This document shows, piece after piece, positions 793 through 46,623 of a stretch of DNA of 64,000 bases; the stretch's first letter is position 1, and the number at the start of each line of letters is the position of its first letter. Source of the DNA: Blastocatellales bacterium (GTDB lineage: Bacteria > Acidobacteriota > Blastocatellia > RBC074); contig JBFWUF010000008.1 of assembly GCA_050247435.1 (NCBI GenBank), positions 22,704 to 86,703 on the forward strand. Reading direction: 5' to 3'. The position numbers and the translations under genes are program-made. A model generated the notes under the pieces. That model saw only the letters and a list, made by a program, of their open reading frames with translations, ran no database searches and had not been told where the DNA came from.

Positions 793-867
793 CGCAGAGA
801 GTGGTCTGTTAATGTCTCAGGTATTGGCGGTTGGTAATTGGGCAAAAAACAGAAAGGAGTTTTTGCT

Positions 868-1365
868 GTGATTACCATCGTCAATCGAAAGACCTGGCGT
901 GGCGAGAGCGTCTACGTTGGGCGACCAAGTGTTCTGGGAAACCCATTTTGCATCGGCAAAGATGGGGAGCGTTCAACCGTAATTTCGAAGTATCGCCGCT
1001 GGCTTTGGAATGAACTCCAACGAGGATCGGGTCTCGTCTTTGATGAGCTTCACCGGCTTGCGAAGTTGGCCAAGTCTGGTGATCTCATTCTTGCTTGTTG
1101 GTGTTTTCCCGAAAAGTGCCACGCCGAAACTATCAAAGCGGCCGTTGAATGGATCAGCAGTCAATCTCAACAGAAACGGAGTGAAACTATGTCGGACAAT
1201 CAGAATGAAATTACCGTAGAGAGACAATGCCATTGCTGCGGAAGCTACGATGGCGACCCATACGCGATTTTGAGCAACGGATACTGCATCCCGTGTGATG
1301 AGGGCGCGAAAATCTCGTGCCTCGAAACCATCAGCCAACAACAATCATCGCCAGGCTTACAATGA
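868..1365 (+). CDS. DUF4326-family protein with a C-terminal Cys-rich (zinc-ribbon-like) extension
   Basis: Motifs VYVGRP, GNPF and ACWCFPEKCH are typical of DUF4326. The C-terminus contains C-x-CC...C-x2-C. The GTG at 868 has an AAAGGAG RBS 8 nt upstream; the ORF-track start at 838 is a TTG without an RBS. Confidence 0.6.
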   Translation: MITIVNRKTWRGESVYVGRPSVLGNPFCIGKDGERSTVISKYRRWLWNELQRGSGLVFDELHRLAKLAKSGDLILACWCFPEKCHAETIKAAVEWISSQSQQKRSETMSDNQNEITVERQCHCCGSYDGDPYAILSNGYCIPCDEGAKISCLETISQQQSSPGLQ

Positions 1366-5272: not shown

Positions 5273-8023
5273 ATGAGTGACAGAGAAACTTTCAATTCGG
5301 ATTTGAGGTTGATGGAACTAGCCGCGCGCAACCCTTCGCTCGGCGGGCGCGAACTGTTCCAAGAAATCATCGAACGCGGCCCTGTACTGGAAGTGATCGA
5401 GCATCCTCAGGCGCGAAATCCGCGCGCAGCATTCATTTCAAATGAGATTGACCATCCTGATCATCGAACTCCGGTTGAGCAAGCGAACTGGCTGAACGAA
5501 CAGAGTCAGGCCATGCGTGACCTGTATGAACGTGGGGCCGGGATCAAAGGCGAGGTGTTGGTCATTCCCACTGAAGAATACGAACTGAGCGAAGAACGCG
5601 AGACGCCGTTCATCACGACTCTTTCCTATGCGCTGAGAAAGATTGGCGACGTTGAGAGGGCACGTGAGTTTCACGCGCTGGCGCTCGCTATCAGCGGTGA
5701 AACGGCTGACGCACGCACACAGATCGCAGTGTTCAAAACCTACTATGACCGGATCGCGCGTGGCGAACGAGAACAGCGTTTCCGCAAAGGAAATGAGGCT
5801 GAACGAGCCGGAGCATTGACGCAGACGCTTGAGGAGATGCGTGTGATCGCTGCTGAGATGGCGAGGCTTGAAACCCGAGAAAGCGTAGACGCCGTTCAAA
5901 CAGCAGAAGATCGAGAAGATGACATTCCAGAAAACCGGCGGAACACTGCTGCGCACCGAATCAGTTTGCGCGATGAATCGCTACGCCTGCCCGCAGGGTT
6001 GAGCTATGAACAGAAAGAACGACTCGTCAGCAGAACGATCCCGGAAATTGATCGCCGACTTGAGCGCGGCGTTAATCGTGAAGCTCTCTTCAAGGCGATT
6101 GACAGAGCGATGTTCCGGCCCGATCCAGCCAAATATAGGCGTAAACTCGCAGAGCTTACTGGCACGCCCAAAGACGAGAACCCCGAACGTGCGGTCAGCA
6201 AAGATGAGTATCTCGAAAGCCAGCGGACATTGCTCCAGTTGTGTGAAGAAGAGCGTCTTCATCTGCGCGAATTGAAGGCCACGCACGATGGGAATGAACT
6301 GGAACCTCACCAGTATGGGCGTCTCAGCCAGGTTGATAATCTGGCTCGTCGGCTCAGACAAGGGATAGGCAGAAATGTTTCGGATGAGAGGCCTGATAGC
6401 GCCGCGCATTCGCGCCTGTTTGTGAGCGTGCCGGAACGGGGTGTCGGGGAGAATGCGCTTCGTCTGCCCGTGAGTAGCGTAAAGGTCTACGAGACGATGG
6501 CAAAGATTGCAGCAGGAGAGAAACTATCCCTGCAAACCTGGGCTGGCAAGGATGGCCCCGAAGTCAGGCTGGCTTTGACGGAACGTGAGGCCGATGAGCG
6601 AAGCAGAATCGGGGCTTTCCTCAAGAACTATGTTGGTGAGCGATTGCGCGATCCGGAGACGCGCTCACTCAACACTTCTTCTGTTTTCCGAGATGCACGT
6701 GCCGCAATCTTTAGCGCTACTACACCAGAAGCACTGGGCCGCGTCGCGGCTGATTTGCTGCGCGTCAATGAACGCCGAAGCGGGGAATTACGACAGCATC
6801 GCGTCGCGCCGGAGAAGTATCCGCTTCCGATAGTGATGCCGCTGAACACACGGGAGCGAAATCTGCTTTTCAATGGCCGTGCGCCGGAGCATCACACGCC
6901 GGAAATGCGCGAGCTACGGCTGAATTATGGGCTGTCAAGAAGGGAGCGTACTGCGCGGATCGCCGACCTTCGTGAAGGAAGGATAGAATCATCTGAAGTT
7001 CTCAAGACGATGCTTAAAGAACTGGAAACAAGAACAACAGCCAAGGCCATCGCGCATTTTCAGGCGAGCATCATCAACGAAAAGATGAACAGCGAAGGAA
7101 GCGTGAATCTTCACCTGCTGAATCAAAGAATCGCGCCCCACGAGCGGACCTTCCTTTATGAGCTTAGTGAAGAAAGAAAGAGAGAGTTAGTGAGATTGCC
7201 GTCTGCTGGGCGATCCGAAGTTGTCAGAGACAACGACCTTGCCGAACCGCCTGTCACTCGCGTCTTCGGTGCGATTCCCAGAGAAAACCGCACCTTTCGT
7301 GAATACATGGCGAATATGGGAAGCATCGAACGGCAACTGCTGAGTGAAGCATTGATTAAGCGAGGAACTGAGTTTGAAAAAGCAGTTTCAGAACAATCCA
7401 GGGACAGGCTGACCATCACCGAAGCGCGCGCGTTACTTCCTGAAGCGCAGCAACGAGAAATCCGCTTGCGCGCCAGAAATCTGGCGTGGCAAAGTCTCGT
7501 GCCGGAGGAGACGTTCGACCGTAATCCTTCGCCCGAAGCCGTGCGGATCAGCGAGACAATCGCTCACATCCAGGAGCATCTTCAGGAAAGAGCGAGCATC
7601 GCCCGAACTGTCCGCACTGATTTTACGGCTGAGCGGATTCGCTCAGAAGAAACAGCAAGGCAAGCGCCAGGGGCGCACAGGCTGGTGGAGCTTGATCGTT
7701 ACGCGGCGCAGACTCGAGAAGATGTCTATCATGCTTTTGAACTGCTTGATATTCAGCGCCGCGACCTTGAATTTGCTCGCACACATCACACTGGCCGAGT
7801 TAAACAAGAAGACATTTGGGATCGCGGCACAGGTGTCCGACCGGAAATATCAAAGGAATCAAACTCGATTTCCACCTCGATGTACGTCACCTCAGATCGT
7901 GAATGGCATTTCGACAGTTTGCGTGAAGCGCTCAATGTTGAGTTGAGCAGATTGCAACCCGAAGAAAGAGGGCGCGAGATTGGACGGCACCACCAGGTGG
8001 ATGATTTAACGCGAGATCATTGA
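5273..8023 (+). CDS. large (916 aa) hypothetical protein downstream of the relaxase
   Basis: Long ORF rich in charged residues (R/E), predicted helical. No Walker A motif, nuclease motif or TM segment was recognised. Clean codon usage; 27 nt after the relaxase stop. Confidence 0.5.
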   Translation: MSDRETFNSDLRLMELAARNPSLGGRELFQEIIERGPVLEVIEHPQARNPRAAFISNEIDHPDHRTPVEQANWLNEQSQAMRDLYERGAGIKGEVLVIPTEEYELSEERETPFITTLSYALRKIGDVERAREFHALALAISGETADARTQIAVFKTYYDRIARGEREQRFRKGNEAERAGALTQTLEEMRVIAAEMARLETRESVDAVQTAEDREDDIPENRRNTAAHRISLRDESLRLPAGLSYEQKERLVSRTIPEIDRRLERGVNREALFKAIDRAMFRPDPAKYRRKLAELTGTPKDENPERAVSKDEYLESQRTLLQLCEEERLHLRELKATHDGNELEPHQYGRLSQVDNLARRLRQGIGRNVSDERPDSAAHSRLFVSVPERGVGENALRLPVSSVKVYETMAKIAAGEKLSLQTWAGKDGPEVRLALTEREADERSRIGAFLKNYVGERLRDPETRSLNTSSVFRDARAAIFSATTPEALGRVAADLLRVNERRSGELRQHRVAPEKYPLPIVMPLNTRERNLLFNGRAPEHHTPEMRELRLNYGLSRRERTARIADLREGRIESSEVLKTMLKELETRTTAKAIAHFQASIINEKMNSEGSVNLHLLNQRIAPHERTFLYELSEERKRELVRLPSAGRSEVVRDNDLAEPPVTRVFGAIPRENRTFREYMANMGSIERQLLSEALIKRGTEFEKAVSEQSRDRLTITEARALLPEAQQREIRLRARNLAWQSLVPEETFDRNPSPEAVRISETIAHIQEHLQERASIARTVRTDFTAERIRSEETARQAPGAHRLVELDRYAAQTREDVYHAFELLDIQRRDLEFARTHHTGRVKQEDIWDRGTGVRPEISKESNSISTSMYVTSDREWHFDSLREALNVELSRLQPEERGREIGRHHQVDDLTRDH

Positions 8024-11000
8024 TGACTCGGTCTTTGTGCCCAGCGCCGTGACAGTAGCTTTCCGTTCCAACTTGCCCCAACCAATAATCGCTCCTTTCA
8101 TTGCCGTCCAGACAGAGCGCGCCATGACGTAATACATTACCTGGCGATAACAGAATCGCTGCAGGAACAGCCACGACAGCAGGCTCCATTGCTCGCGTTT
8201 TTCGAGCAGAAACGCGAAGCCAGCGGCCATCCAATCCACTGCCAGAAATAGCGCATAGTAAAAGAGCGCCTGTTTGAGATTGGTGATCGCGTATTCGCCT
8301 GGATGTTCCCATCGCTCGAGCGCTGCTGAAATTAGCGTCCATACGAACATCAAATCCATAAGTGGCGAAATCAACGGAAAAAGAATCTGAAAAATCCAGA
8401 CGTTTGGCATAGCGACGAAACCTAGCGCGCCGTATCGCGAATTGAAGAGCGCATCGCGATGTTTCCACATACACTGCAACGTGCCAAACGACCAGCGAAA
8501 TCGTTGTTTGGCCAACCCGCGCACCGTATCAGGAGCTTCCGTCCAGGCAACCGCGTCTTCTTCATATCCGATCCTGTAACCAAGCTTGCGAACTTTAAGC
8601 GTCAGATCCTGGTCCTCGGCCAGCGTGTCTGAGGCGAAACCGCCGAGTTGTTTGAGCAGGTCGCGCCGCCACGCGCCGACCGCGCCTGGCACGACCGTGA
8701 TGCAGTTGAGCGCGGCGAAGGCGCGGCGATCTAGATTCTGCGCCGTGATGTATTCGAGCGCCTGCCAGCGCGTCACCAGATTGATGCGATTGCCGACTTT
8801 GGCGTTCCCGGCAATCGCCCCGACGCGCGGATCGTCAAAGCGGCGGGCGAGCGCGCCGACCGTTTGCGGAGGAAAGATCGTGTCGGCGTCCAGCGCGACA
8901 ACGATTTCGCCTTGCACGAATTGCAACCCGAAATTTAGCGCTTCGGCTTTGCCGCCGTTAGTTTTAGTCAGCAGACGCACGCGCGATTCGGCGGCGAACT
9001 GTTCACGCACAACCTCGCTCGTGCCGTCGGGCGAACCGTCGTCCACGACGATGATTTCGAAGCGGGGATAGTCCGACGCCAGCAAACTGTGGATCGTTTG
9101 CGCGATCACTTTCTCTTCGTTGTAGGCGGCGATGATAACGGAAACGAAGGGCGCTTCTGCGGCGCTCACAGTTTCCCGCGTTCGCCGCCTTGACCGTCGT
9201 TGTTGCGCCAGCGCCAGCGCGCCGATGAAGACGAGGCGCGCCAAACCGAGCACGATGCCGATCAGGAAAACCCAGCGCAGCGCCCAACCTCCAACCGCCA
9301 TTGCATAAAAGGTCACGGCGTCGGCTTTGGAAAAGAAGCCTCTCTCGGGCGGTAGCGGCGGCATAGCCTGATCGCGCGTCATCCCGGCCAGTTGTGAAAC
9401 CGTCGTAAAGCGATAGCCTTTGGTGCGCAGATCGCGAATCAACCTCGGCAACGCCTCGACGGTTTGCGCGCGGTCGCCTCCGCCATCGTGCAGCAATACC
9501 ACCTGTCCGCGCTCGTCGGGGTTGGGGTTTTCGATTCCCGCCATCGTGCGCTGGACGATGGCGTCCGCACCGGGCAAAGTCCAGTCGTCGGGATCCACGC
9601 GGAGTCCGGTGATGATGTAACCCAGGCGATTCGCAATCGCCGCCGGCTCGACTTCGTCCGGCGTTTGAGGTTCAGCGTCGCCGAAATACGGCGCGCGAAA
9701 CAGCCGGGTTGACCTTCCGGTTAGCGATTCGATCAACCGCTGCGTCGCGTTGAGTTCCAGTTCGGTGATGCGGCCCGGAATTTCGCCGAGGTTCGGATGC
9801 GTGTACGAATGATTGCCGATGTCGTGGCCTTCGGCGACGATGCGTTTGACGAGACCGGGATTCCCCTGCCCGTTCTGGCCGATGATGAAGAATGTCGCGG
9901 GAACGTTTTCGCGTTTGAGGATATCGAGGATTTGCGGCGTCCACTTCTCGTCCGGCCCGTCGTCGAAGGTCAAGGCGACCTGGCCCGGACGCCAGCCCGT
10001 GCGTCGAATGACGTAAGAGGAGGGAATGCTCAGGTATTGCGCGGAACGAATCAGCCCGCTCTTCGCATCCAGCGTGATTTCCCGCGAGCCTTCCCTGGGC
10101 GAAGCCTCGAATTGCAGAACCTCGCCCATCCCCTCGAAGTCCACGTCGTAACCGTACACAATCTGCTTCAATCCATCAGGAGAAGCCTCCATCTGCTGAT
10201 TGCCGAAAATAGCCCATAGCGACGGGTCTTCGGAACCCATCCGCCAGAGCGCGAATCCCGCGACGTTGTAGCCGCGCGCAACGCGCATCTGGTTGAAAGC
10301 GGTCACGCCGTCGAGAAACCAAACCGTATGCTCGGCGCCGCCTTCATCTCCGTAGCGGAAATAAGGATTGCGAGTCGCCGGATCGAACTTGATGCTGGCC
10401 TCGCTGTCGCGCGCTTCGAGTACGGCTTCCTGAAAAGTCAGCTCTTCGGTTTCTTTGCCTTTGCTCCAGCCATAGCCGTAGCCGCCGATGCAGACGACCG
10501 TTTTCGCGGGATCGAGTTCTTTCATTCGTTTGGCCAGCGTCGCCTCGAACCAGGGCTGCCCGGCGATGCTGCCCGGATCGCTTTCATTCCAATGCTCGTC
10601 GTAGGCCATCAAGAGGAGAGAATCATTGGCTGCGGCGTAATCCCGGTAATTCCACGCCGGGTCGTCGAAGGGCGCGGCCTGCATCACCGTCCAGTTCCGC
10701 GCCTTGAATGCTGCGTGAAGCTGTCGCACGAACGCAAGCAGATTTTTCTGCGAAGTGTTCGGGACTTCCTCAAAGTCAATGCAAACACTCTGGAAGCCAT
10801 TGTCGCCGACTACGCGCGTCAGTTCACTGACCAGCCGCGTGCGCGCGGTTTCATCGCTGATTTGTTGGGCGAGCGTTTGCGGTTCCCACTTCCCATCCTT
10901 CGAATTGTGAATCATCGGGATGATCGGCAAGTCGGAACGTTGTTTGCGAACCAGATTGAGCGCGCGCGGATCAACTTCAAGCGCCAATGGATGATCGCCC

Positions 11001-11449
11001 GTTTGCAGCCGAATCCATTCGGGGATCAATTGGTCAAGTTGCGGCAAATGGCGTTTGAGCGATTGGTAGCTCGAATCGTCCCAGTTGACATAAAACCCGC
11101 TGGCCAGCGGGCGCGTGGGCGAATGACTCACGCTCACGGCCGGCGTGGGCGTTTTGCCTTGATGAGCTATCGTCGCCCGGTCAAGCGCGGCCCGTGCACG
11201 CGCGGCTTTCCGCTCGCGGCGATCAGCGATCAACTGCGGCGCTTGCGGTTTGGCGTCCACCACGCCGGGCAGGACGGACAACTGTCGCAGATTCAATTGC
11301 GGCAATGTCGGATTGATGAGTATGCTGGCGACGAAGATCGCTGCAAGCGCCGTGACGATGGCGGCCAATGGCCAACCGGCGCGGCGCAGGTTGCGGCTTC
11401 GGCGGCCCAGTGGATCGTAAAAAACAGGAAGACTTTTGCCAGTTTGCAT
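8006..11449 (-). CDS. multidomain exopolysaccharide synthase: N-terminal GH18-like domain + CE4 (NodB) polysaccharide deacetylase + GT2 processive glycosyltransferase (PgaB/PgaC-like fusion)
   Basis: N-terminal TM anchor. GH18-like motifs YVNWDD and CIDFEEV. CE4 motifs TFDDGPD, HSYTHP and RAPYFG. GT2 motifs VSVIIAAYNEE, VVDDGSPDG, LDADT and QRFRW (the QxxRW motif). C-terminal TM helices. Confidence 0.85.
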   Translation of the reverse strand: MQTGKSLPVFYDPLGRRSRNLRRAGWPLAAIVTALAAIFVASILINPTLPQLNLRQLSVLPGVVDAKPQAPQLIADRRERKAARARAALDRATIAHQGKTPTPAVSVSHSPTRPLASGFYVNWDDSSYQSLKRHLPQLDQLIPEWIRLQTGDHPLALEVDPRALNLVRKQRSDLPIIPMIHNSKDGKWEPQTLAQQISDETARTRLVSELTRVVGDNGFQSVCIDFEEVPNTSQKNLLAFVRQLHAAFKARNWTVMQAAPFDDPAWNYRDYAAANDSLLLMAYDEHWNESDPGSIAGQPWFEATLAKRMKELDPAKTVVCIGGYGYGWSKGKETEELTFQEAVLEARDSEASIKFDPATRNPYFRYGDEGGAEHTVWFLDGVTAFNQMRVARGYNVAGFALWRMGSEDPSLWAIFGNQQMEASPDGLKQIVYGYDVDFEGMGEVLQFEASPREGSREITLDAKSGLIRSAQYLSIPSSYVIRRTGWRPGQVALTFDDGPDEKWTPQILDILKRENVPATFFIIGQNGQGNPGLVKRIVAEGHDIGNHSYTHPNLGEIPGRITELELNATQRLIESLTGRSTRLFRAPYFGDAEPQTPDEVEPAAIANRLGYIITGLRVDPDDWTLPGADAIVQRTMAGIENPNPDERGQVVLLHDGGGDRAQTVEALPRLIRDLRTKGYRFTTVSQLAGMTRDQAMPPLPPERGFFSKADAVTFYAMAVGGWALRWVFLIGIVLGLARLVFIGALALAQQRRSRRRTRETVSAAEAPFVSVIIAAYNEEKVIAQTIHSLLASDYPRFEIIVVDDGSPDGTSEVVREQFAAESRVRLLTKTNGGKAEALNFGLQFVQGEIVVALDADTIFPPQTVGALARRFDDPRVGAIAGNAKVGNRINLVTRWQALEYITAQNLDRRAFAALNCITVVPGAVGAWRRDLLKQLGGFASDTLAEDQDLTLKVRKLGYRIGYEEDAVAWTEAPDTVRGLAKQRFRWSFGTLQCMWKHRDALFNSRYGALGFVAMPNVWIFQILFPLISPLMDLMFVWTLISAALERWEHPGEYAITNLKQALFYYALFLAVDWMAAGFAFLLEKREQWSLLSWLFLQRFCYRQVMYYVMARSVWTAMKGAIIGWGKLERKATVTALGTKTESSMISR

Positions 11450-11461
11450 CAGCGCCTCTCT

Positions 11462-11653
11462 CTACTTCAGTCTTTCCGCTGCGTTCTTCTTTTCCGCTTC
11501 TGGTTCGTTGATTTCGTTGACGCCCCGCTTAAAGCCGCGAATCGCTTCGCCCAGGCCCTTGCCGAGTTCCGGCAACTTCTTCGGGCCGAAAACGAGCAGC
11601 ACGATGCCGAGCACGATGATCAGATGCAACGGTTGAAAGAGTCCTTCAAACAT
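11462..11653 (-). CDS. tatA: twin-arginine translocase subunit TatA/E
   Basis: [44 protein letters not shown] is the canonical TatA TM and amphipathic helix. ATG at 11653. Ends 12 nt before the start of the fusion synthase. Confidence 0.85.
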
Positions 11654-11673
11654 GTTTGTTCCTTTCCCTTCAA

Positions 11674-11865
11674 TCAGACGGTTTGCGGTTGCGCGAACAG
11701 CGCGGCAAACTCGACGCGCGGATTTACTCGTCGCGCCTGCCGTTTGCGTACCCACTCGCTGACCGTGAACTGCACTTGCGGAGTATTTGCCGTGTGGGCT
11801 TGTGGCTGATCGGTCTGTTCCTGCTTCAACACTTCTCCACGTTTGATCAATTTTGGTTTGTTCAT
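11674..11865 (-). CDS. small hypothetical protein (63 aa) upstream of tatA
   Basis: ATG at 11865 with an AGAGG RBS 7 nt upstream. The sequence [17 protein letters not shown]... is basic. Same strand as tatA and 20 nt upstream of it. Confidence 0.35.
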
Positions 11866-12862: not shown

Positions 12863-13453
12863 ATGAAGTTGATGTCACTGTTTTTTTCAGGCGCGATGTA
12901 CGACATGTTTGCGCTTGCGCTGCCCATCGCGGAGAAAATGCTCCGTCCGGTGATCGTTTACGTGTTTCTGGTCGTCGCCTTGCGCGTCTTCGGCAAACGC
13001 GAACTGGCGCAACTCAATCCTTTCGATTTGGTCGTACTGCTGTCGCTGTCGAACACCGTGCAGAACGCCATCATCGGCGATGACAACTCAGTGACCGGCG
13101 GTTTGATCGGCGCGTTCACGCTGCTGGCGACGAACTATCTGGTCGTGCGCTTTCTGTTTCGCCATCGCAGGCTGGATCAGATCGTTGAGGGGGCATCAAC
13201 CGTGCTGATCGAGAACGGGCGCATTCGGCGCCAGGCGTTGGCGAAAGAGTTGTTGACGGAATCGGAATTGCTGAGCGTCGCGCACCGGCAGGGATTCAAG
13301 AATCTGAGCGAGATCAGTCGCTGCGTGCTCGAACCCGGCGGGGTGTTTTTCATCGAAGCCAAAACGCCGCCCATCGCCGAACGGCAACATGCTGAATTGC
13401 TCGCGCAACTGGAACAGATCAAAAACCAGCTCGCTCAACTCAACCGCGCTTGA
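12863..13453 (+). CDS. DUF421 (YetF-like) membrane protein
   Basis: N-terminal TM helices followed by the conserved DUF421 core (LAQLNPFDLVVLLSLSNTVQNAIIGDDNSVTGG). Confidence 0.7.
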   Translation: MKLMSLFFSGAMYDMFALALPIAEKMLRPVIVYVFLVVALRVFGKRELAQLNPFDLVVLLSLSNTVQNAIIGDDNSVTGGLIGAFTLLATNYLVVRFLFRHRRLDQIVEGASTVLIENGRIRRQALAKELLTESELLSVAHRQGFKNLSEISRCVLEPGGVFFIEAKTPPIAERQHAELLAQLEQIKNQLAQLNRA

Positions 13454-14240
13454 TCGCGCATTGTTCGCGGTAAGCGCACACCCTGCACTTCCAGTATTCC
13501 GCCGGAGCGGGTAGTTTGCCGGAATCAATCTCTTCAAAACGGGCGAGCGCGGAGTGGGCATTTTCGGCGTTCACGTCGCTTTCAAACGTTTCGATGGCAT
13601 TGGCATCTTCGGCCAGAATCTGAATCCGTTTGCGCGGGCGTTTGAAAAACAGCCCATAGAGGTCGCCCTGCAGTTCGGCTATTCGCTTCGAGACCACCAA
13701 ATATGCTCGCCTGCGCGTGGTTTTGAATTCGTAAACGAAGTCACGAGCCAGTCCGTCCGGGATTCCAAGCGCGACATAGCGCGAATATTCAAAACCCCAT
13801 CTCACAGTGGCGTATTTCTCCGCAAACGCGCTTTGGTTCGCTCTTCCGCGTTCATAAGGATCAGCCGATTGGCTGAAACAGGCTTTTGATTTAGGCGGAA
13901 CTCCGATCTTGCGCCGTCGCGTTCCTTTCGGTTCGACAAGCTCCAACCGGGCAATCTGTTCGAGTAGTTTCAACGGCGCGATACGCTTTTCAATGCCCAC
14001 TGTTTCCTGTAAACGCTCCAGGCGATCTGCAAGGTACGCGCCGAAGTATCCAGGTTCCTTCTCTTTATTCCTGAACCAGGATTGCATCGCGCACCACTCC
14101 ATTTGCGCCAGGTCATGCATGCCAATGAATACGAGAGCGTCAGGCAGAGCGCCGCGCCGCTCTTTCTCGATTGGCAACAGTTGGTCAGAATTTACGCCCA
14201 CCTGAAACAGATAATCGAATAGCGTGTACGTTTTTTTCAT
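13440..14240 (-). CDS. Cas4/RecB-like PD-(D/E)xK nuclease with 4Fe-4S cluster cysteines (DUF83-like), solo
   Basis: N-terminal Cys (MEWCAM). Motif II GIPDGL. Motif III EFK. QGDLY (the QxxxY motif). C-terminal C-x2-C-x5-C (CRVCAYREQC). No cas1/cas2 or CRISPR repeats nearby. Confidence 0.7.
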   Translation of the reverse strand: MKKTYTLFDYLFQVGVNSDQLLPIEKERRGALPDALVFIGMHDLAQMEWCAMQSWFRNKEKEPGYFGAYLADRLERLQETVGIEKRIAPLKLLEQIARLELVEPKGTRRRKIGVPPKSKACFSQSADPYERGRANQSAFAEKYATVRWGFEYSRYVALGIPDGLARDFVYEFKTTRRRAYLVVSKRIAELQGDLYGLFFKRPRKRIQILAEDANAIETFESDVNAENAHSALARFEEIDSGKLPAPAEYWKCRVCAYREQCAIKRG

Positions 14241-14476
14241 AGCAGTTAATTGGATCCTCTTTCGTTCTGGGTCAGCCGCAATCTTTGCTTACGAGGAAAC
14301 TACAAGCCAGCAAGCATTAACGGATTCGCTTTGCGTAATAGTGCCCGCGCCATTGTTCCAGTGATGAAGGTGAATTGTCTTGCGCCACCGAGTCAATCTA
14401 GACAAAATGCTTTTTCCCCTCTCGCAGTTCAATCTCGTATTACCAGCTACAATTCGATGATGGGAGCATCACTAAG

Positions 14477-15790
14477 ATGGAGCATGCTGAAGTAGAAGTC
14501 GCCAGTCCGGCAATTCAACCAGCCGCGCAAAACCATACGCAACCCGGTCCGGTGCGACGTTTCTTCCGCAATCTCGGTCCGGGGCTGATTACAGGCGCGG
14601 CGGATGACGACCCGTCGGGCATTTCGACTTATGCGACGGCGGGCGCGGCCTTTGGCTATGGAATGTTGTGGACGGCGTGGTTCAGTTTGCCGTTGATGGC
14701 GGCGGTGCAGTTGATGTGCGCGCGCATCGGCCTGGTGTCGGGGCGCGGACTGGCGGCGGTGCTACGACGCTACTATTCGCGGCGCGTGCTGTGGTTTGCC
14801 TGCGCGTTGTTGCTGGTCGCCAACACCGTCAACATCGCGGCGGATCTGGGCGGGATGGCCGAAGCAATGCAATTGCTGACCGGGATAAACTCGCTCTGGT
14901 TCCATCTGCCCTTCGCCGCGCTGATTGTCGCGCTGCTTTTTTTCACGTCCTATCGCACGATGGCGAACATCTTCAAATGGATCACGCTGGTGTTGTTCGC
15001 CTATTTCATCGCGGCGTTTCTCGCGCATCCCCACTGGCCGGACGTGCTCAAGGCGACTTTCCAGCCGCGCCTCAGCTTGAACCGTGATTACCTGATGACG
15101 CTCGTGGCGATTCTCGGCACGACGATTTCACCTTACCTCTTTTTCTGGCAGGCGGCGCAACTGGTGGAGGAAGAAAAAGCCGCCGGCAAGAATACGGTCG
15201 GCAAGCGGATGGGCGCGACGCGCGAGGAACTGCGCGCCGTTCACGCGGATGTCATCACGGGCATGACGATTTGCGTCGCCGTCTTTTACTTCATCATCCT
15301 AACGACAGGCGCGACGCTTTACGCCAACGGGCAACGCGAAATCGAGACCGCGCGGCAGGCTGCTGAAGCCCTGCGCCCGCTCGCGGGTGAAGCGGCGTAT
15401 GCGCTGTTTGCGTTGGGCCTGATCGGCACGGGGATGCTGGGCGTGCCCGTGCTGGCGGGTTCGGCAGCTTATGCAGTAGCTGAAGCCTTCGCCTGGCGCA
15501 GTGGGATGAATGAGCGACCACGCATGGCGCCAAAGTTTTATGCCGTGATTGCCGTGGCGATGGTTGCCGGAGTGCTGCTCGATTATTCCGGCTTCAATGC
15601 GATCAAGATGCTTTTCTGGTCGGCGGTGCTCAACGGATTGCTTGCGCCGCCGCTGATCGTGATCATCCTGATTGTCTGCAACAATCCGCGCGTGATGGGC
15701 GAACATGTGAACGGGCGCTGGCTCAACTGGCTGGGCATCGGAGCGGCGTTGGTGATGACGGTTGCGGCAATAGCAATGTTTTGTGGATAA
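14477..15790 (+). CDS. mntH: NRAMP-family divalent metal (Mn2+/Fe2+) transporter
   Basis: Nramp signature GPGLITGAADDDPSGI. 11-12 TM helices. 437 aa. Confidence 0.9.
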   Translation: MEHAEVEVASPAIQPAAQNHTQPGPVRRFFRNLGPGLITGAADDDPSGISTYATAGAAFGYGMLWTAWFSLPLMAAVQLMCARIGLVSGRGLAAVLRRYYSRRVLWFACALLLVANTVNIAADLGGMAEAMQLLTGINSLWFHLPFAALIVALLFFTSYRTMANIFKWITLVLFAYFIAAFLAHPHWPDVLKATFQPRLSLNRDYLMTLVAILGTTISPYLFFWQAAQLVEEEKAAGKNTVGKRMGATREELRAVHADVITGMTICVAVFYFIILTTGATLYANGQREIETARQAAEALRPLAGEAAYALFALGLIGTGMLGVPVLAGSAAYAVAEAFAWRSGMNERPRMAPKFYAVIAVAMVAGVLLDYSGFNAIKMLFWSAVLNGLLAPPLIVIILIVCNNPRVMGEHVNGRWLNWLGIGAALVMTVAAIAMFCG

Positions 15791-16743: not shown

Positions 16744-19700
16744 TTAAGATTGGGCTGGCCGCTTCGTCGCGCCAAAGCGCAGGTAAAGCGCCGGCATCAG
16801 AAAGAGATTCAGCGCCGTTGAACTGAACAGCCCGCCCAAAATCACCACAGCCAGCGGGTGTTCAATCTCGTGTCCGGGTTTATTGCCGCCGATGACGATG
16901 GGCAGCAGCGCCAGGCCTGTCGCCAGCGCCGTCATCAGGATCGGCGCCAACCGTTCTTCAGAGCCGCGCAGGACAAGCTCCTGACCGAACTCCTGACCTT
17001 CTTCGGTTTCCAGGTGGCGGTAGTGGCTGACCAGCATGATCCCGTTGCGCGCGGCGATGCCCAGCACCGTCACAAATCCCACCAGCGAACCCAGCGATAG
17101 AATCCCACCTGTCAACAGCGTGGCCGCGACTCCGCCAACGAGCGCGAATGGCAGGCTGAAGAAGACCAGAGCCACCAACCGGGGCGAGCGAAAATCGGCG
17201 TGCAGCAAAAGTAGAATGCCGAGCAGCGCCAGCCCGGAAAGCGCCAGCAGCCGGTTACGCGATTCCTGCCGGGCCGCGTATTCGCCCAGGAATTCCGGGT
17301 GATAGCCGCGGTCGAATGACAGCGATTTGACTTTGGTTTCGATCTGGCGTGCCACGCTGCCCAGGTCGCGCCCTTTCACGTCGCAGGTCACGTCAATGCG
17401 GCGGGACGCGCCTTCGCGTTGCACGATGTTCAGCGCGGGCGCGATCTGCACGTCCGCCACATCGCCCAAAGGAACATCACCGCCCGCTGCCAAGCTGATT
17501 CTCAACCTGCGCACGGCTTCCAGGTCAGTGCGCGTGCTCGGCGCGCCCCAGACGACCACGTCATTGATTTGCTGCGCCTCGTAAAGCTCTCCGACTTTCT
17601 GTCCCTTGATCAGCGTAGTCGCCGCGCGGCGCACATCGCCCGGCGTCAGGCCGAACCGCGATGCTGCGTCTTGCCGCAACCGCACTTCGATCTGCGGAAC
17701 CAAAACCTGCTGTTCGATTTTCAGATTGGATACGCCTTGCACACCGCCGATTGTCTTACCGACTTCGGCAGCTTTCGTGCGCAGCCCCTCCAATTCGGGG
17801 CCGTAAATGCGCACGACGATGGAAGCGCCCGCGCCGGTCAGGACTTCCTTGATGCGCTCCTTCAAATAGGTCAGCAGGTCGCGCACCAACCCTGGATACC
17901 CGTCCACGACTTCCTGGATTTTGGTTACGGTCGGCTCGTAAGGCGCGTTCGGGTCAATGCTAATCCACAACTCGGTGAAGTTCGGACCGACGACTTCGTC
18001 CGCGACTTCGGCGCGGCCAATGTGCGAGCCAAAGTTGCGCACGCCGGGAATGGCGCGCAGTTCCTTACTCACCGCGATGGTGATGCGGTCCATCGCTTCG
18101 AGCGACGTGCCGGGCTTTTCAACCCAGTGCATCAGGAAGTCCGTCTCCTTGAAGTTCGGCAGAAACTCTTCGCCTAGTAACGGAACCACCGCCGCCGTCA
18201 GTCCGAACAGGACGAGCATCGAGATGACGGCTGTTTTCGGCTTGTTGATGAACGAGGGCAGCAGGCGGCGGTAGTGGCGTTTGAGAAAGCGAGTCAGCGC
18301 AGGCTCCGGGCGCTCGCAGTTCGCCGCGCGCGGCAACAGCAGCAATGACAGCGCGGGCGTCAGCGTCAGGGCCACGCCCAGCGACGCCAGCACCGCCAGC
18401 ACGTAAGAAATCGCCAGCGGGCGGAAGAACGAACCCGACAGCCCGTCCAGAAAAAAGATCGGCAGGAAGACCATCACCACGATCAGTGTGGCGAAGACGA
18501 TGGCGCTGCGTACTTCCAGCGAGGCTTTCAACACCACCGAGAATGCAGATTCAGGATTTCCCGCTTCGCGGTTCAGCCGCAGCCGCCGCATGATGTTTTC
18601 GACATCAATGATGGCGTCATCCACGACTTCGCCGAGCGCAATCACCAAGCCCGCAATGACCATCGTGTTGATCGTGTAGCCGCGCCAATACAAGACAAGC
18701 GTCGCCGCCAACAGCGAGAGCGGAATCGCCGATAAACTGATGACCGCCGTTCGCCACTCAAACAGGAAAGCGACCAGCACGGCGATGACCAGCAAACAGC
18801 CGATGAACAACGCCGTCCGCAAATTCCGCAGCGCCACTTCAATGAAAGTCGCAGGGCGAAAGATGGTTGGATCCACTTCGACATCTTTCAATCCGGGCTT
18901 GAGCGCATTGAGCGCGGCTTCGACATTGCGCGTCACGTCCAGCGTGTTGCCTTCCGGTTGCTTTTCGACGATCAGCAGGATGCCGGGGCCGTCGTTGATG
19001 ATCGCGTCGCCGATCGGCGGCGGATGGCCTTCGACGATCTCGGCGACGGCGCCCAGGGCGAGCGGCGCGCCGTTGCGGAAGGCAACGGGAACGCGCGCCA
19101 GGTCCTGCGGCTGTGTAACGGCGGCCAAGTGCGCGACGGACAATCGCTGATTCGGCGTGTCCACGAAACCACCCGCAGCGACGGCTACGGCATCGCGGGT
19201 CGCGCGCTCGACATCGGCCAGCGTGACGTTGTGCGCGCGCAACCGCTCCGGATCAACCAGCACCTGCATCTGGCGGTCGCGCTGGCCCCAGATCGCCACG
19301 TTCGCCACGCCGGGCACGGCCATCAAGCGCGGGCGAAGCGTCCAGCGAGCCAACGCTGAAAGCTCCATCTGTGAAAGCGTTTTCGATGACAGGCCGATCT
19401 TCATCGCGCGGCTGGTGGAGGATAGCGGCTGCAAGATAACGGGCGGGTGCGCCGCCCCAGGCAGTTGCGGGGCGACCAGCGCCAGCCGCTCCTGCACGCG
19501 CTGCCGCGCCGGCATCAGGTCCGTGTCCTGCTGGAAGATCAAAACCACCGACGACAGGCCGAGCACGGATTTCGAGCGCAGCGTCTTCAATTGCGCCGTG
19601 CCGTTCAGCGCGTTCTCAATCGGCACGGTGATCAGGCTTTCGACTTCGGCGGTCGAAAAGCCAGGCGCTTCGGTCTGAATCTCGACCAGCGGCGGCGCGA

Positions 19701-19821
19701 ATTCGGGGAACACGTCAAGCGGCGTCGTGCGCACCACGCGCAGGCCGACGATCATCAACAGGATCGCGACGACGACGACGATGACGCGCAGTTGCAGAGA
19801 GGTTGAGACGAGCCAGTTCAT
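16744..19821 (-). CDS. czcA: CusA/CzcA-family heavy-metal efflux RND permease
   Basis: 1025 aa with 12 TM helices and two large periplasmic loops. The N-terminus ([24 protein letters not shown]) is the HME-RND hallmark. Confidence 0.95.
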
Positions 19822-19827
19822 TCAGAA

Positions 19828-21051
19828 TTATTTTCCCGTGCCGAATTCCGTACCGAAGATTTCAGCGGCTCCGGCGGTGACGACTTTTGCGCCCAAAGCC
19901 GGGCCGCGAGCCAGCACGGCCCGCGAATCCACGACGCGGCGCACTTCCACGCGGCGGCGCACATATTGCTGCGGCGCGGTGTTTTCATAAACCCAAGTCC
20001 CGCCATGGATGTCGTGCAAAACTGCCGACCACGGAACGACCAGGCTCTCTGCTGACGCTTTTTCCAAAAGCGTCACACTCATCTTCTGACCGGGCCGTAG
20101 GGAGCCGTCTGTGTTGGCCAACTCAAAATATAGGTCGGCGGTGTCGTTGGCGGGGTTGGCGGTAGGTGGCGCGTTTACTGGCCGAGCAACGCGCGATGGC
20201 GCGCCGAGCGGATCATTCAGCATCCGCACGCGCGCGGTCTGATTGCGATGGATCGCGTTCAAATCACCGACGTATACCGGCACGCGAATCCAAACCACGG
20301 CGAGGTTGACGACTTCGAACAGCGGTGCGCCGCCGGTCACGGTCTGGCCCGGACTGACGAACAATTTCTGGATCATCCCGTCGCGCGGGGCGACGACGGT
20401 GACCGCGACATCGCCGGAAATGGGCGCTTTGTCGTAACGCTCAAGCCGCGCGCGCGCCGTTTTCAAATCATTTTCTGCGACGTTTAATTCTTCGCGCGCC
20501 TGCTCAACGGCTTTCTCGCTGCCGGCGCGATCGCGCAGCAATTGCTCGGCGCGGTTGAAGCGAACGCGCGCGGCGTCCACGCGCGTCTGCGCATTGGTCA
20601 CATCGCGATCCAGTTGCACGCGCAGGTCACGCTCCGGCGCGAGCAGCGGCGTCAGGCGAAAAACCACCTGTCCTTTGCGCACAAACATCCCGACCGACGG
20701 CGGCGCGTCGGACAAAAGCGTCCCGCCCAACGGCGCCGACACGCTAATGGTTCGATCCGGCGGAAGTGTGATCTCTCCGGCAAAGGTGCGTGCCTCAGCG
20801 ACTCTTTCGATTGCAACTGGCGAGGTTGTGACGCCCAATCGTTGTTCAGCCTGCGGCGAGAGTTTAACCGTGGCCAAGTCAGTTTCTTTGACCGCGTTCT
20901 CGACTTTGGCAGCGGGCGCGGTTTTCTGACTTTCGGCTGCTTGTGGTTTTGAACAGCCTGACAGCCAGAGCGTAGAAGTTATGATGATCAGAATTTGCCC
21001 AATCATCACTTGCAAGAGGAGTGGGCGGCGCGCGGGATCAATGATTCGCAA
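19828..21051 (-). CDS. czcB: RND efflux periplasmic adaptor (CzcB/CusB-like)
   Basis: Lipoprotein-like N-terminus (LSGCSKP). Coiled-coil hairpin region, beta-barrel and MP domains. Immediately upstream of czcA. Confidence 0.85.
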   Translation of the reverse strand: MRIIDPARRPLLLQVMIGQILIIITSTLWLSGCSKPQAAESQKTAPAAKVENAVKETDLATVKLSPQAEQRLGVTTSPVAIERVAEARTFAGEITLPPDRTISVSAPLGGTLLSDAPPSVGMFVRKGQVVFRLTPLLAPERDLRVQLDRDVTNAQTRVDAARVRFNRAEQLLRDRAGSEKAVEQAREELNVAENDLKTARARLERYDKAPISGDVAVTVVAPRDGMIQKLFVSPGQTVTGGAPLFEVVNLAVVWIRVPVYVGDLNAIHRNQTARVRMLNDPLGAPSRVARPVNAPPTANPANDTADLYFELANTDGSLRPGQKMSVTLLEKASAESLVVPWSAVLHDIHGGTWVYENTAPQQYVRRRVEVRRVVDSRAVLARGPALGAKVVTAGAAEIFGTEFGTGK

Positions 21052-43492: not shown

Positions 43493-46400
43493 TTAGTCAC
43501 CCGTGGAAGCCAGTTCTCCCCCATCGCCATATTTATCCGTTGTAGCCAGTACCGCTGCCTCTCCGTATTTCAGATATAACGCGGGGATCACGATCATATT
43601 CAGCAAGGTCGAAGTGACGATGCCGCCGAGAATGACGACGGCCATCGGCTGCTGAATCTCGCGGCCCGGCTGGCCGGCGCCAAGCGCGAGCGGGACGAGG
43701 CCGATGCCGGTGACAAGCGCCGTCATCAGGATTGGGCTCAAGCGTTCCATTGATCCCTGCACAATCGCCTCGCGGAAGCTCAGGCCTTCTTCTTCCATCA
43801 AGTGTTGGTAATGGCTGATGAGCATGATCCCGTTGCGCGTGGCGATGCCGAAGAGCGTAATGAAGCCGACGAGCGAGGCAATCGAGAGCGTGCCGCCCGA
43901 CAGGAAGACCATCACCACGCCGCCGATCAGCGACAGCGGCAGGTTCGCCATCACCAGCAGCGCCGGGCGCACCTGTTTAAGCGCCATATAAAGTAGCAGG
44001 AAGATGCCGCCGACAGCGACAATGGAAAGCAACGTGATCTGGCGCGCAGCCTTCTCCTGCGCCTCGAACTGCCCGCCGTACTGCACGAAGTACCCTTGTG
44101 GCAGCGCGACTCTGCCGGTGATAGCGGCGCGTACGTCGGCGATGACGCTCCCCAAATCCCTGCCCGCGACGTTGGCCTGGACAATGATGCGTCGCTGCAC
44201 GTTTTCGCGGTTGATCGTGTTCGGCCCCTGATCGGTGCGGACTTCGGCGACCTGGGCGACGGGGACTTTCGCGCCCGAGGGCGTGTCAAGCAGCGTGCGG
44301 CTGATCGCCTCGACAGACTGGCGGGCGGAATCGTTGAAACGCACCATCACGTCGTATGTCCGCTGCTCTTCCAGCACCTGTGAAACTGCTTCGCCATTGA
44401 AGGCGATTTCAACCGTTTGGGCGAGATCCGCGGCGCTCAAGGCCACGGCGGCGGCGGCTTGGCGGTTCAGGTTGATCTGCACCTGCGGCACGCCGACCTG
44501 CGGCTCGACCAGCAGGTCAACGACGCCGGGCACGGTCGCCATCGCGTCACGAATCTCCCCCGCTTTGTTGCGGAGCGTGGCGAGGTCAGGGCCGAAGAGC
44601 TTGATCGCAATCTGCGCGCGCGTGCCGGAAAGCAGGTGGTCAATGCGGTGCGAGATGGGCTGACCGACTTCCGCCTCGACGCCGGGAATCTGCGCGAGTT
44701 TCTGCCGCACTTCTTCCATCACTATGGAATGTTTCCGGTCGGCTTCTTTTGTGACGACTTCAAGCTCGCTGGTGTTGACACCCGCCGCGTGCTCGTCGAG
44801 TTCGGCGCGCCCCGTGCGTCGGGTCGTCGTGACGACTTCGGGAACCTGGCGCAGCACTCCCTCGATGATATTGCCGATGCGGTTCGACTCCTGCAGCGAT
44901 GTGCCGGGCGGCAGGTTCGCGTTGATGTTCAGCGTGCCTTCGTTGAAGGGCGGCAGGAACTCGCGGCCCATTAACGGGAATAACGACACAGCAATGAGCA
45001 GCATCATCGCCGAAGCCCCAATGATCCGGTACGGGTGGCGCAACGTCCAATCGAGCAGACGCGCGTAGTGGCGCTTGAGCCAGGTGACGAGCCACGAATC
45101 CTTTTCGTCGTGCAGCACTTCGGCGCGGCGCAGCAAGTAAAAGCACAGCACTGGCGTGACGGTCAGCGCGACGACAAGCGAGGCCGCAACCGAAATGATG
45201 TAGGCGAAGGCGAGCGGCGCGAACATCCGGCCTTCAAAACCGCTTAAGGAAAAGAGTGGCAGGAAGACCAGCACGATAATCAGCGTGGCGAAGACGATTG
45301 AATTCCTGATCTCGCTCGACGCCCGGAAGATAACCCTGGCGACGGGTTCGGGCGCGGGTAAGTGCGCGTTCAGCTTCAAACGGCGGAAGACGTTCTCGAC
45401 ATCCACAATCGCGTCGTCAACCAACTCTCCGATGGCGATGGCCAGCCCGCCCAGCGTCATCGTGTTGATGCTGATGCCGAAGTAACTCATCGCCAGAATC
45501 GCGGTGATGAGCGAGAGCGGGATCGCCGTCAGACTGATGAACGTCGTGCGGAAGTTCATCAGGAACAGGAACAGCACGACGGTCACGAGAACGCCGCCTT
45601 CGACGAGCGCGCGGTTGACGTTGCCGATGGCTCGTTTGATGAAATCGGCCTGCTGGAAGGCTTTTGTGTCAATCATCACATCGGGCGGCAGCGAAGTTTT
45701 CAGGTTCGCCAGCGTGGTTTCAATTTGTTCGGAGACCTCAAGTGTATTGGCGTTCGGCTGTTTCTGGATTGTCGCCACGACCGCCGGTTGCCCGTTGAAG
45801 CTGCCGTCGCCGCGCTTGAGCGCCGCGCCCGTTTTCACCTCCGCCACATTCTTGACGAGGATCGGCGCGCCGTCGCGCACGGTGATGACTGAGTCCGCCA
45901 AATCGTCGGGCGAGTAGACGCGCCCGCGCCCGCGAATCAGAAACTCTTCGTTCGGTTGTTCGAGGAAGCCGCCCGCCGCATTCGCGTTGGACGCGCTCAC
46001 GGCCTTCGTCACTTGATCGAGCGTCAGGCGATAGTCCGCGAGCTTCGCCGGATCAACCAGCACCTGATATTGCTTCTTCTGCCCGCCGATAATCATCACC
46101 TGCGAGACGCCCGCGACGCCCAGCAGACGCGGGCGCACGACCCAGTCGGCGAGCGAACGCAGTTCCATCGGCGATGTCTGTTTGCTTGTCATCGAGATGA
46201 GCATGATCTCGCCCATCGTCGAGGAGATCGGCCCCAACACGGGCGGCGTCACTCCGGTGGGCAGACGCACTTGCTGCAATTTCTCGGTGACAAGCTGGCG
46301 CGCGCGGTAAATATCCGTGCCAAAGCTGAACTCGACGAAGACGATGGAGATGCCGATGGCCGAATTGGAGCGCACGCGAAAGACGCCCGCCGTGCCGTTC

Positions 46401-46618
46401 ATTGCCGATTCAATTGGCAGCGTAACCAGCGCTTCGACCTCTTCAGGCGCGAGGCCGTGCGACTCGGTGAGAATCGTCACGGTCGGCGCAGTCAGGTCTG
46501 GAAAGACATCTACCGGCGAGCGTAATGCGACGATGCCGCCGTAAATCAGCAGCGCGACGGCGGCCACGATCACGAGCAATCTGTTATTGAGCGACCACTG
46601 GATGATTTTGTTCAACAT
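43493..46618 (-). CDS. czcA: CusA/CzcA-family heavy-metal efflux RND permease (paralog 2)
   Basis: 1041 aa with HME-RND architecture. N-terminus LRSPVDVFPDLTAPTVTILTESHG. Confidence 0.95.
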   Translation of the reverse strand: MLNKIIQWSLNNRLLVIVAAVALLIYGGIVALRSPVDVFPDLTAPTVTILTESHGLAPEEVEALVTLPIESAMNGTAGVFRVRSNSAIGISIVFVEFSFGTDIYRARQLVTEKLQQVRLPTGVTPPVLGPISSTMGEIMLISMTSKQTSPMELRSLADWVVRPRLLGVAGVSQVMIIGGQKKQYQVLVDPAKLADYRLTLDQVTKAVSASNANAAGGFLEQPNEEFLIRGRGRVYSPDDLADSVITVRDGAPILVKNVAEVKTGAALKRGDGSFNGQPAVVATIQKQPNANTLEVSEQIETTLANLKTSLPPDVMIDTKAFQQADFIKRAIGNVNRALVEGGVLVTVVLFLFLMNFRTTFISLTAIPLSLITAILAMSYFGISINTMTLGGLAIAIGELVDDAIVDVENVFRRLKLNAHLPAPEPVARVIFRASSEIRNSIVFATLIIVLVFLPLFSLSGFEGRMFAPLAFAYIISVAASLVVALTVTPVLCFYLLRRAEVLHDEKDSWLVTWLKRHYARLLDWTLRHPYRIIGASAMMLLIAVSLFPLMGREFLPPFNEGTLNINANLPPGTSLQESNRIGNIIEGVLRQVPEVVTTTRRTGRAELDEHAAGVNTSELEVVTKEADRKHSIVMEEVRQKLAQIPGVEAEVGQPISHRIDHLLSGTRAQIAIKLFGPDLATLRNKAGEIRDAMATVPGVVDLLVEPQVGVPQVQINLNRQAAAAVALSAADLAQTVEIAFNGEAVSQVLEEQRTYDVMVRFNDSARQSVEAISRTLLDTPSGAKVPVAQVAEVRTDQGPNTINRENVQRRIIVQANVAGRDLGSVIADVRAAITGRVALPQGYFVQYGGQFEAQEKAARQITLLSIVAVGGIFLLLYMALKQVRPALLVMANLPLSLIGGVVMVFLSGGTLSIASLVGFITLFGIATRNGIMLISHYQHLMEEEGLSFREAIVQGSMERLSPILMTALVTGIGLVPLALGAGQPGREIQQPMAVVILGGIVTSTLLNMIVIPALYLKYGEAAVLATTDKYGDGGELASTGD

Positions 46619-46623
46619 AGATC

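Follow-up and report, generated by a model that had tools for sequence, protein, structure and literature searches.

A predicted stand-alone iron-sulfur nuclease between Cas4 and Exonuclease 5, from an unnamed prokaryotic family, in a Blastocatellales genome

What does a Cas4-like nuclease do in a genomic region without a CRISPR-Cas system? The question is raised by a 64-kb stretch of contig JBFWUF010000008.1 from a Blastocatellales bacterium (Acidobacteriota), referred to here as the window, in which an intact open reading frame (ORF) at 13440-14240 on the minus strand runs from an ATG start through 266 codons to a stop codon. Its product is 100% identical to AB7U82_14560, a 'hypothetical protein' on a 172-kb contig of a Blastocatellales metagenome-assembled genome (MAG), and an exact-protein look-up returned no match on record. 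Cas4-like nucleases encoded on their own are common, and little is understood of their biology. A first-pass annotation of the window had credited the protein with the 'full Cas4/DUF83 signature' and a solo existence. Based on motif conservation, structure prediction and comparison of loci, we propose that it is probably a functional, stand-alone iron-sulfur (Fe-S) PD-(D/E)xK nuclease of an unnamed family between Cas4 and Exonuclease 5 (Exo5), with an accessory part in end processing, and that the gene was horizontally acquired. The biochemical identity is very likely, and a role in repair or recombination is put forward tentatively, the chances being nearly balanced.

The motifs reported in the first-pass annotation and the 266-aa ORF were all read back from the DNA, and the motif sites are 93-98% conserved in 188 family sequences (40 homologues plus 148 further representatives from an exhaustive profile search), where almost all exceptions are gaps in truncated or partial sequences. 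The first cysteine lies in QMEWCAM (14085-14105, on the minus strand like all motifs given here), which holds W49 and C50, the latter being the predicted N-terminal ligand of an Fe-S cluster. Three predicted C-terminal ligands, C252, C255 and C261, sit in CRVCAYREQC (13458-13487), a C-x2-C-x5-C array, and by alignment and model the four cysteines would form an iron-sulfur 'staple'. The catalytic residues comprise D162 in motif II, GIPDGL (13749-13766), E171 and K173 in motif III, EFK (13722-13730), and Q191 and Y195 in the QxxxY motif, QGDLY (13656-13670), whereas the motif I acidic residue is assigned by inference, with E62 (14055-14057; 98% conserved) as the candidate. Across the 188 sequences the cysteines are retained at 97% (C50), 96% (C252), 96% (C255) and 93% (C261), so the claim of a conserved four-cysteine cluster is not refuted by the orthologues, and the catalytic positions at 97% (D162), 98% (E171), 98% (K173), 97% (Q191) and 97% (Y195). 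In the 40-sequence alignment W49, C50, E62, D162, G163, E171, K173, Q191, D193 and Y195 are invariant and C252, C255 and C261 nearly so, and the window protein has all 25 invariant columns.

The RecB-type motifs D, ExK and QxxxY follow the same order as in a canonical Cas4 alignment of type I-A proteins (C18...D80...E94-x-K96...Q113-x3-Y117...C183-x2-C186-x5-C192). The spacing from the first cysteine to motif II is 112 residues in the window protein, compared with 62 in the Cas4 alignment and up to ~220 in long-form homologues. At residues 99-118 (13887-13946), a low-confidence linker, most homologues have a variable insert of 30-110 aa that the window protein largely lacks. Near the N terminus, the alignment identifies a family-specific motif, LLPIEKERRG (residues 21-30; 14151-14180), placed within model helix 18-28; its K26 is 98% conserved and the motif does not occur in canonical Cas4.

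Curated profile hidden Markov models (HMMs) all score the protein below their cut-offs. PF01930 (Cas_Cas4) yields 14.8 bits against a cut-off of 22.7 and covers residues 224-262 only, TIGR00372 (cas4) yields 22.7 bits against 65, PF12705 (PDDEXK_1) yields 16.2 bits against 22 over the C-terminal 60 residues only, and PF09810 (Exo5) yields 9.4 bits against 25. By these models the window protein is no formal member of Cas4/DUF83, Exo5 or PDDEXK_1; of the 'full Cas4/DUF83 signature' the motifs, cysteines and fold therefore stand, whereas the membership does not. The HMM comparison with Cas4/DUF83 that the annotation had proposed falls short of the curated thresholds but leaves a weak signal (TIGR00372, E 7e-5; PADLOC Cas4 models, E 1.9e-5 to 1e-4, one of them across residues 43-263), and these below-threshold matches are statistically suggestive. 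The same weak contacts recur among 40 family members at E<=1, with 30 touching PDDEXK_1, 20 Cas_Cas4 (best E 8.3e-5) and 19 Exo5. A search of all PDB sequences with the family profile returned only human EXO5 (E 0.005, C-terminal 50 residues), accompanied by a faint match at the first cysteine (EXO5 'DLAEQNWCELQ' vs 'DVAEYYWCAMKS'), in keeping with the similarity of QMEWCAM to the EXO5 'NWCELQ' motif. Profile-profile comparison with the canonical Cas4 alignment by hhalign, for which the reference was a single type I-A subfamily, reached 94% probability over the C-terminal 73 columns only, the part containing the Fe-S cysteines. The C-x2-C-x5-C stretch is the sole part that aligns to Cas4 and EXO5 profiles.

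Structure prediction extends this likeness to the whole fold. AlphaFold2 run on the family alignment gave a model with a mean predicted local distance difference test score of 85.1 and a predicted template modelling score of 0.81, in which residues 99-118 form the sole disordered stretch. Foldseek matched the model to the Cas4 structure 4ic1 (E 1.8e-6) and to EXO5 (E 1.1e-5). Next among its structural relatives come LHK-Exo, the DinG nuclease domain, MGME1, type I-C Cas4, Dna2, lambda exonuclease and RecE. Predicted structures from viruses are as distant as cellular ones (E ~1e-6, <=20% identity). Judged from the model, the protein is an iron-staple PD-(D/E)xK nuclease about equally close to Cas4 and Exo5, and by curated criteria a member of neither.

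Profile comparison instead assigns the window protein to a small, sharply bounded, unnamed family, whose profile it matches with 294.7 bits (E 8.4e-83) in a search of 1.84 billion proteins and whose specific motifs it carries (family patterns LLxLEKERRG, YWCAMKS, YLxDRxxYS, YPTIRWNFxW and FVYEFKTT). That exhaustive search, made against representatives at 50% identity, recovered 442 sequences at E<=1e-3, 351 at E<=1e-10 and 239 at E<=1e-30, and the family profile stops short of the much larger canonical Cas4 family. Thirty-nine homologues were found at E 1e-31 to 1e-52, all at <=44% identity, and the nearest relative from a genome, at 46% identity, comes from Planctomycetaceae, with none closer. 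In GTDB contigs, taking one genome per species, the family occupies 38 loci. Archaeal holders include Bathyarchaeia, Thermofilaceae, Heimdallarchaeota, Micrarchaeota, Methanosarcinales, Archaeoglobaceae, ANME-1, Korarchaeota and others; bacterial holders span about ten phyla, among them Aquificaceae, Anaerolineales, Kofleriaceae, WOR-3, Acidobacteriota, Thermodesulfobacteriota, Planctomycetota, Verrucomicrobiia, Paceibacterota and Halanaerobium. As far as sampled, the family is prokaryotic only. No viral copy was detected in IMG/VR (2.9 million contigs) or INPHARED (50,697 phage genomes), so the link to phages raised by the first-pass annotation finds no match for this family.

Within the family, six of 40 homologues have an N-terminal extension of ~60 aa resembling HTH_23, a transposase-type helix-turn-helix; this subgroup consists of P0007, P0011, P0012, P0013, P0015 and P0020 (also L010 and L011). 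Ten long members (385-453 aa) showed no extra Pfam domain. In two MAGs the gene is split into two adjacent ORFs (L024:9908-10876, Thermodesulfobacteriota; L044:9944-10898, Archaeoglobaceae), for which a frameshift, a pseudogene or an assembly error is possible.

A neighbour-joining tree of the family is star-like, with bacteria and archaea interleaved and the window protein on a long branch. The nuclease gene has a GC content of 0.534 and a GC content at third codon positions (GC3) of 0.586, compared with means of 0.587 (standard deviation, SD, 0.031) and 0.696 (SD 0.062) for 41 ORFs of the window; these low values are compatible with horizontal acquisition without proving it. We also compared 80 metagenomic loci encoding relatives (47-67% identity) of MntH, the product of the gene next to the nuclease gene in the window, and in none of them does the nuclease or the other neighbour, a DUF421 gene, adjoin mntH. 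A functional tie of the nuclease to mntH or DUF421, and thus to manganese transport, is therefore rejected. Because the two domains interleave in the tree, GC3 is low and none of the 80 MntH-relative loci has the gene, the Blastocatellales lineage would have gained the nuclease by horizontal transfer as a single gene. No empty site was obtained, the single other contig with the exact DUF421 protein being from the same organism and having the same gene order.

Members of the family occur patchily in both prokaryotic domains and show no link to CRISPR-Cas. The first-pass annotation was right that the window has no CRISPR-Cas context: the 64 kb contain no CRISPR-like array and no Rfam match, and PADLOC found no Cas protein among the 40 window ORFs of at least 150 aa, a scan that a Cas2-sized ORF would escape. 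The sole PADLOC matches among these ORFs are to RtcR-type models, hit by a sigma-54 activator, and around the nuclease gene the window has no integrase, tRNA or flanking direct or inverted repeat. The gene thus stands outside cas loci and recognised mobile elements within the window, and the earlier suggestion of a 'remnant of a defence island' finds no support there. Elsewhere in the family, a CRISPR array lies within 10 kb in one of 40 distinct loci. This exception is a Thermofilaceae MAG (L007:4879-7800, same contig as L019:6772-9668), where a type I-A array of 46 repeats (GTATCAGTGAAGAATGAATTGAAAG) ends ~200 nt upstream of the homologue and the type I-A cluster, cas3-HD-cas2-cas4-csa1-cas1, has its own canonical Cas4 and Csa1.

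An all-against-all BLASTP comparison of 1,658 ORFs from 41 loci (40 distinct) revealed no universal neighbour and no cluster common to more than four loci; 202-aa ORFs near two homologues proved mutually unrelated. Pfam and PADLOC scans of 126 neighbours (two genes to either side) showed that most are metabolic or informational, including an RNA polymerase operon, carbamoyltransferases, quinolinate phosphoribosyltransferase and biotin ligase. A smaller number encode BrxL, type I and IIG methyltransferases, Upf1-like helicases (with Mokosh MkoA-type hits), a TraG/HerA ATPase or an SNF2 helicase. Mobile settings also occur: one homologue lies in a 32-kb contig full of small co-directional ORFs that also encodes an archaeo-eukaryotic primase (AEP) and a canonical Cas4, another, on megaplasmid pMU3262 of Thermoanaerobacterium, immediately precedes a tyrosine recombinase, and some lie beside DDE transposases, with P0013 immediately downstream of one (L130:6774-7883).

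The one recurrent partner is a PF13482 gene (RNase_H_2; PolB-exo-like), a predicted 3'-5' exonuclease that adjoins the nuclease gene in four unrelated lineages. It is upstream on the same strand in Geoglobus (L028:8905-9903), upstream with an 11-nt overlap in ANME-1 (L038:610-1389), downstream with a 46-nt overlap in Planctomycetaceae (L036:10708-11832) and convergent in Heimdallarchaeota (L016:11084-11632). PF13482 accounts for four of 72 adjacent genes and for none of 426 other genes at the same loci (Fisher p = 4e-4), the non-adjacent genes having been screened solely with an HMM built from three of the four PF13482 proteins. The two genes may constitute a two-nuclease module. The PF13482 protein may be related to MrfB/YprB, though we make no such claim. 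The window itself has no PF13482 gene.

A further set of copies was observed in the Candidatus Methanodesulfokora washburnensis assembly, which has three (L033:9897-10771, L034:9908-10771 and L035:1748-2625) at 94-96% nucleotide identity. The similarity runs from 10-25 nt before the ATG to the stop codon and thus covers the gene only; the upstream flanks are unrelated and hold, respectively, a YprA-family helicase, a tRNA-guanine transglycosylase (TGT)-family gene and an unrelated ORF. Paralogy, variation between strains or a mobile cassette the size of one gene could account for these copies. Compared with L035, L034 carries a 1.9-kb insertion exactly at the nuclease stop codon (L034:10767-12725; also L033 from 10767 to the contig end). 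It ends with a degenerate ~45-nt copy of the 3' end of the nuclease gene (L034:12681-12725), which resembles an att-type duplication from an integrating element, and two ORFs within it (138 and 164 aa) have no Pfam match. The helicase directly upstream in L033 (L033:4992-9821) is a 1609-aa protein with DEAD and MZB (DUF1998) domains, whose best solved relative is 9tu7_Y (2108 aa; E 2e-73), deposited under the bare title 'DEAD/DEAH box helicase', with YprA/MrfA also matched; we suspect that the L033 helicase may be of the Druantia DruE type. Directly upstream in L034 (L034:8838-9908) is a truncated archaeosine-TGT-like protein (E 3e-27 to 1iq8). Together the L033 helicase and the L034 TGT-like gene hint at Druantia- or Dpd-like defence regions.

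How would such a nuclease work? In the proposed mechanism, the four cysteines would bind a [4Fe-4S] cluster by which the N-terminal helix is fastened to the C terminus, and the active site would employ Mg2+ or Mn2+. EXO5 structures bind single-stranded DNA (ssDNA). The Cas4 protein Sso0001 of Sulfolobus solfataricus is a 5'->3' ssDNA exonuclease with ~4 Fe per protein (PMC3466216). By analogy with these two enzymes, the family nuclease would engage free DNA ends and degrade or trim ssDNA in the 5'->3' direction. The window nuclease would act alone, whereas in about one-tenth of lineages the enzyme would be paired with the adjacent PF13482 predicted 3'-5' exonuclease. Its role would be accessory DNA end processing in repair or recombination, which we favour because the majority of loci are ordinary chromosomal settings, no member was found in the viral collections searched and the sole recurrent partner is an exonuclease of predicted opposite polarity.

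Several observations weigh against this proposal. The curated HMMs score below threshold and the hhalign match to Cas4 is confined to the C-terminal part, and the polarity, substrate and cluster type are extrapolated from relatives at <=20% identity. A solo-Cas4 of Methanosarcina mazei, which belongs to a different family, prefers supercoiled double-stranded DNA and has a nuclease activity that is independent of the cluster (PMC12501428); activities within the superfamily are therefore not uniform. Support for the repair role comes chiefly from the lack of any defence or virus signal and from a partner found in ~10% of loci, and a phmmer search of PDB sequences found no solved relative of that PF13482 partner. 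About one-fifth of loci adjoin restriction-modification, BREX, helicase or mobile-element genes, which also fits a defence function, and the deviation in GC and GC3 of the window gene (~1.7-1.8 SD low) is below 2 SD.

A defence function is the main alternative, to which we give a modest chance, namely that the protein is a stand-alone or accessory anti-phage or anti-plasmid nuclease that degrades invading linear DNA ends, either as a single gene or as a module for restriction, helicase or Druantia/DISARM-type systems. The rarity of the family, its patchy spread and its transfer across domains would suit such a function, as would the methyltransferases, BrxL, Upf1-like and SNF2 helicases and TraG/HerA ATPase found within two genes, the position of the L033 copy directly after the 1609-aa YprA-family helicase, the proximity of the Thermofilaceae copy to the 46-repeat array, and the reported link of Cas4-like nucleases to COG1205/DUF1998 helicases in defence islands (Hudaiberdiev et al.; PMC5704561). 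However, there is no conserved defence partner, and most loci, the window included, are housekeeping or efflux regions without PADLOC defence hits. A lone, unregulated nuclease would also have no evident means of discriminating self from non-self, and the ~20% of loci with defence neighbours is a raw fraction. It is rather unlikely that the gene is cargo or a remnant of a mobile element (a plasmid, an integrated virus or an insertion sequence-associated cassette) serving the replication or recombination of the element or countering host defences, with the window copy as a stranded leftover. The contig with the AEP primase and canonical Cas4, the pMU3262 copy upstream of a recombinase, the copies beside DDE transposases, the HTH_23-like extension, the three gene-limited Methanodesulfokora copies and the slightly low GC3 of the window copy all point in that direction. 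Against this stand the lack of any match among the IMG/VR contigs and phage genomes searched, the window without integrase, tRNA or flanking repeats, and the intact set of catalytic residues, which argues for maintained function over decay.

It is very improbable that the protein is a true Cas4 of CRISPR adaptation, working in trans with cas1-cas2 elsewhere in the genome. Such a protein would have the Cas4-like fold and motifs seen here, IMG labels three of 40 homologues as COG1468 Cas4 (NCBI labels them hypothetical), and one homologue adjoins a type I-A locus and array. That locus, however, is already provided with canonical Cas4 and Csa1, in 39 of 40 loci the nearest 10 kb contain no array, the scores fall below the Cas4 HMM cut-offs, and the window has neither arrays nor, among the ORFs that PADLOC covered, cas genes. 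In addition, the family is present in lineages of the candidate phyla radiation (CPR; Paceibacterota) and of DPANN (Micrarchaeota). CPR and DPANN lineages often lack CRISPR. The remaining possibility, a chance ORF or inactive pseudogene, might be read from the 'hypothetical protein' label and from the two split homologues, L024 and L044, but is refuted by the 39 homologues at E<=1e-31, the 351 representative clusters at E<=1e-10, the confident fold prediction and the presence of every conserved residue.

The preferred reading, a stand-alone end-processing nuclease, can be set beside the known enzymes that it resembles. With Cas4 (DUF83/PF01930/COG1468/TIGR00372; Sso0001, PDB 4ic1; Cas4-Cas1 fusion, 7mi4) the family has in common the fold, the four-cysteine spacing and the order of catalytic motifs. 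It differs in falling below all curated thresholds, in a profile-profile match limited to those 73 C-terminal columns, in a window protein ~60 aa longer with the conserved N-terminal LLxLEKERRG helix, in a first-cysteine motif of YWCAMKS where Cas4 has the YAYCP type, and in having no cas1/cas2 association. Human EXO5 (PF09810; PDB 7lw7-7lwa) has a similar fold, and its first-cysteine and C-terminal motifs are common to both, whereas similarity outside the cysteine motifs is not significant and EXO5 is a eukaryotic repair enzyme. Among Pfam models, PDDEXK_1 (PF12705; nucleases of the AddB type and Cas4-like ones of phages) is touched by the largest number of members and has the same iron-staple architecture (PMC3466216); the family has no helicase fusion. 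Solo-Cas4 is a recognised category for which repair or defence roles have been proposed and not established (PMC5704561), and the family is likewise Cas4-like, outside cas loci and equipped with four cysteines; whether it counts as a Cas4 family for this category depends on which profile and threshold are applied. Mainly vertical evolution was reported for that category (PMC5704561), whereas bacteria and archaea interleave in this family, and the M. mazei solo-Cas4 lacks the RecB motif (PMC12501428) that the family retains. The Argonaute-associated Cas4-family enzyme ACE1 (PDB 9iab) is a further case of a Cas4-family fold outside CRISPR.

The immediate surroundings of the window gene are simple. 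As the first-pass annotation had noted, the coordinates show a convergent overlap, of 14 nt (13440-13453), with the 3' end of the DUF421 gene (PF04239; 12863-13453, plus strand), and an mntH neighbour on the other side. This Nramp/mntH gene (14477-15790, plus strand) is divergent from the nuclease gene, with which it has a 236-nt intergenic spacer in common (14241-14476). The nuclease gene is monocistronic by its geometry, the upstream gene being divergent and the downstream gene convergent. An AGAGGA sequence in the spacer ends 14 nt upstream of the nuclease ATG; no sigma-70 consensus promoter was found in the spacer, and a promoter and terminator scan gave nothing above background.

Most of the remaining window is taken up by operons for RND efflux and by two-component systems. 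Four RND pairs (ACR_tran and an HlyD-type adaptor) at 16744-21051, 43493-47928, 50096-54564 and 59563-63998, with two-component systems and the sigma-54 activator in between, make for an unusually high density of such pairs in 64 kb. On the minus strand, 8006-11449 encodes an 1147-aa fusion of GH18-like, polysaccharide deacetylase and family-2 glycosyltransferase domains that resembles an exopolysaccharide synthase-deacetylase, followed by a TatA-like gene at ~11462-11755. A DUF4326 protein (838-1365, plus strand; E 1e-19) is encoded with a GC3 of 0.52, the lowest in the window, and may be horizontally acquired too.

Taken by itself the window is modest: it holds an intact accessory nuclease gene, around which nothing points to an unusual system. 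Its significance lies in the family to which it points, which is compact and well conserved, comprises ~350 clusters at 50% identity and is unnamed in current Pfam and NCBIfam models. One further reading, which we consider unlikely, sees the family as an autonomous unit of one gene, which would serve as a one-protein immunity nuclease or, as a nuclease gene, would promote its own spread. The gene-sized transfer between bacteria and archaea and the three near-identical Methanodesulfokora copies would both be explained in this way and, if true, the occasional pairing with PF13482 would represent a two-nuclease end-processing module not recognised before. In its sequence features the family links Cas4 with eukaryotic EXO5, and it is transferred between bacteria and archaea as one gene.

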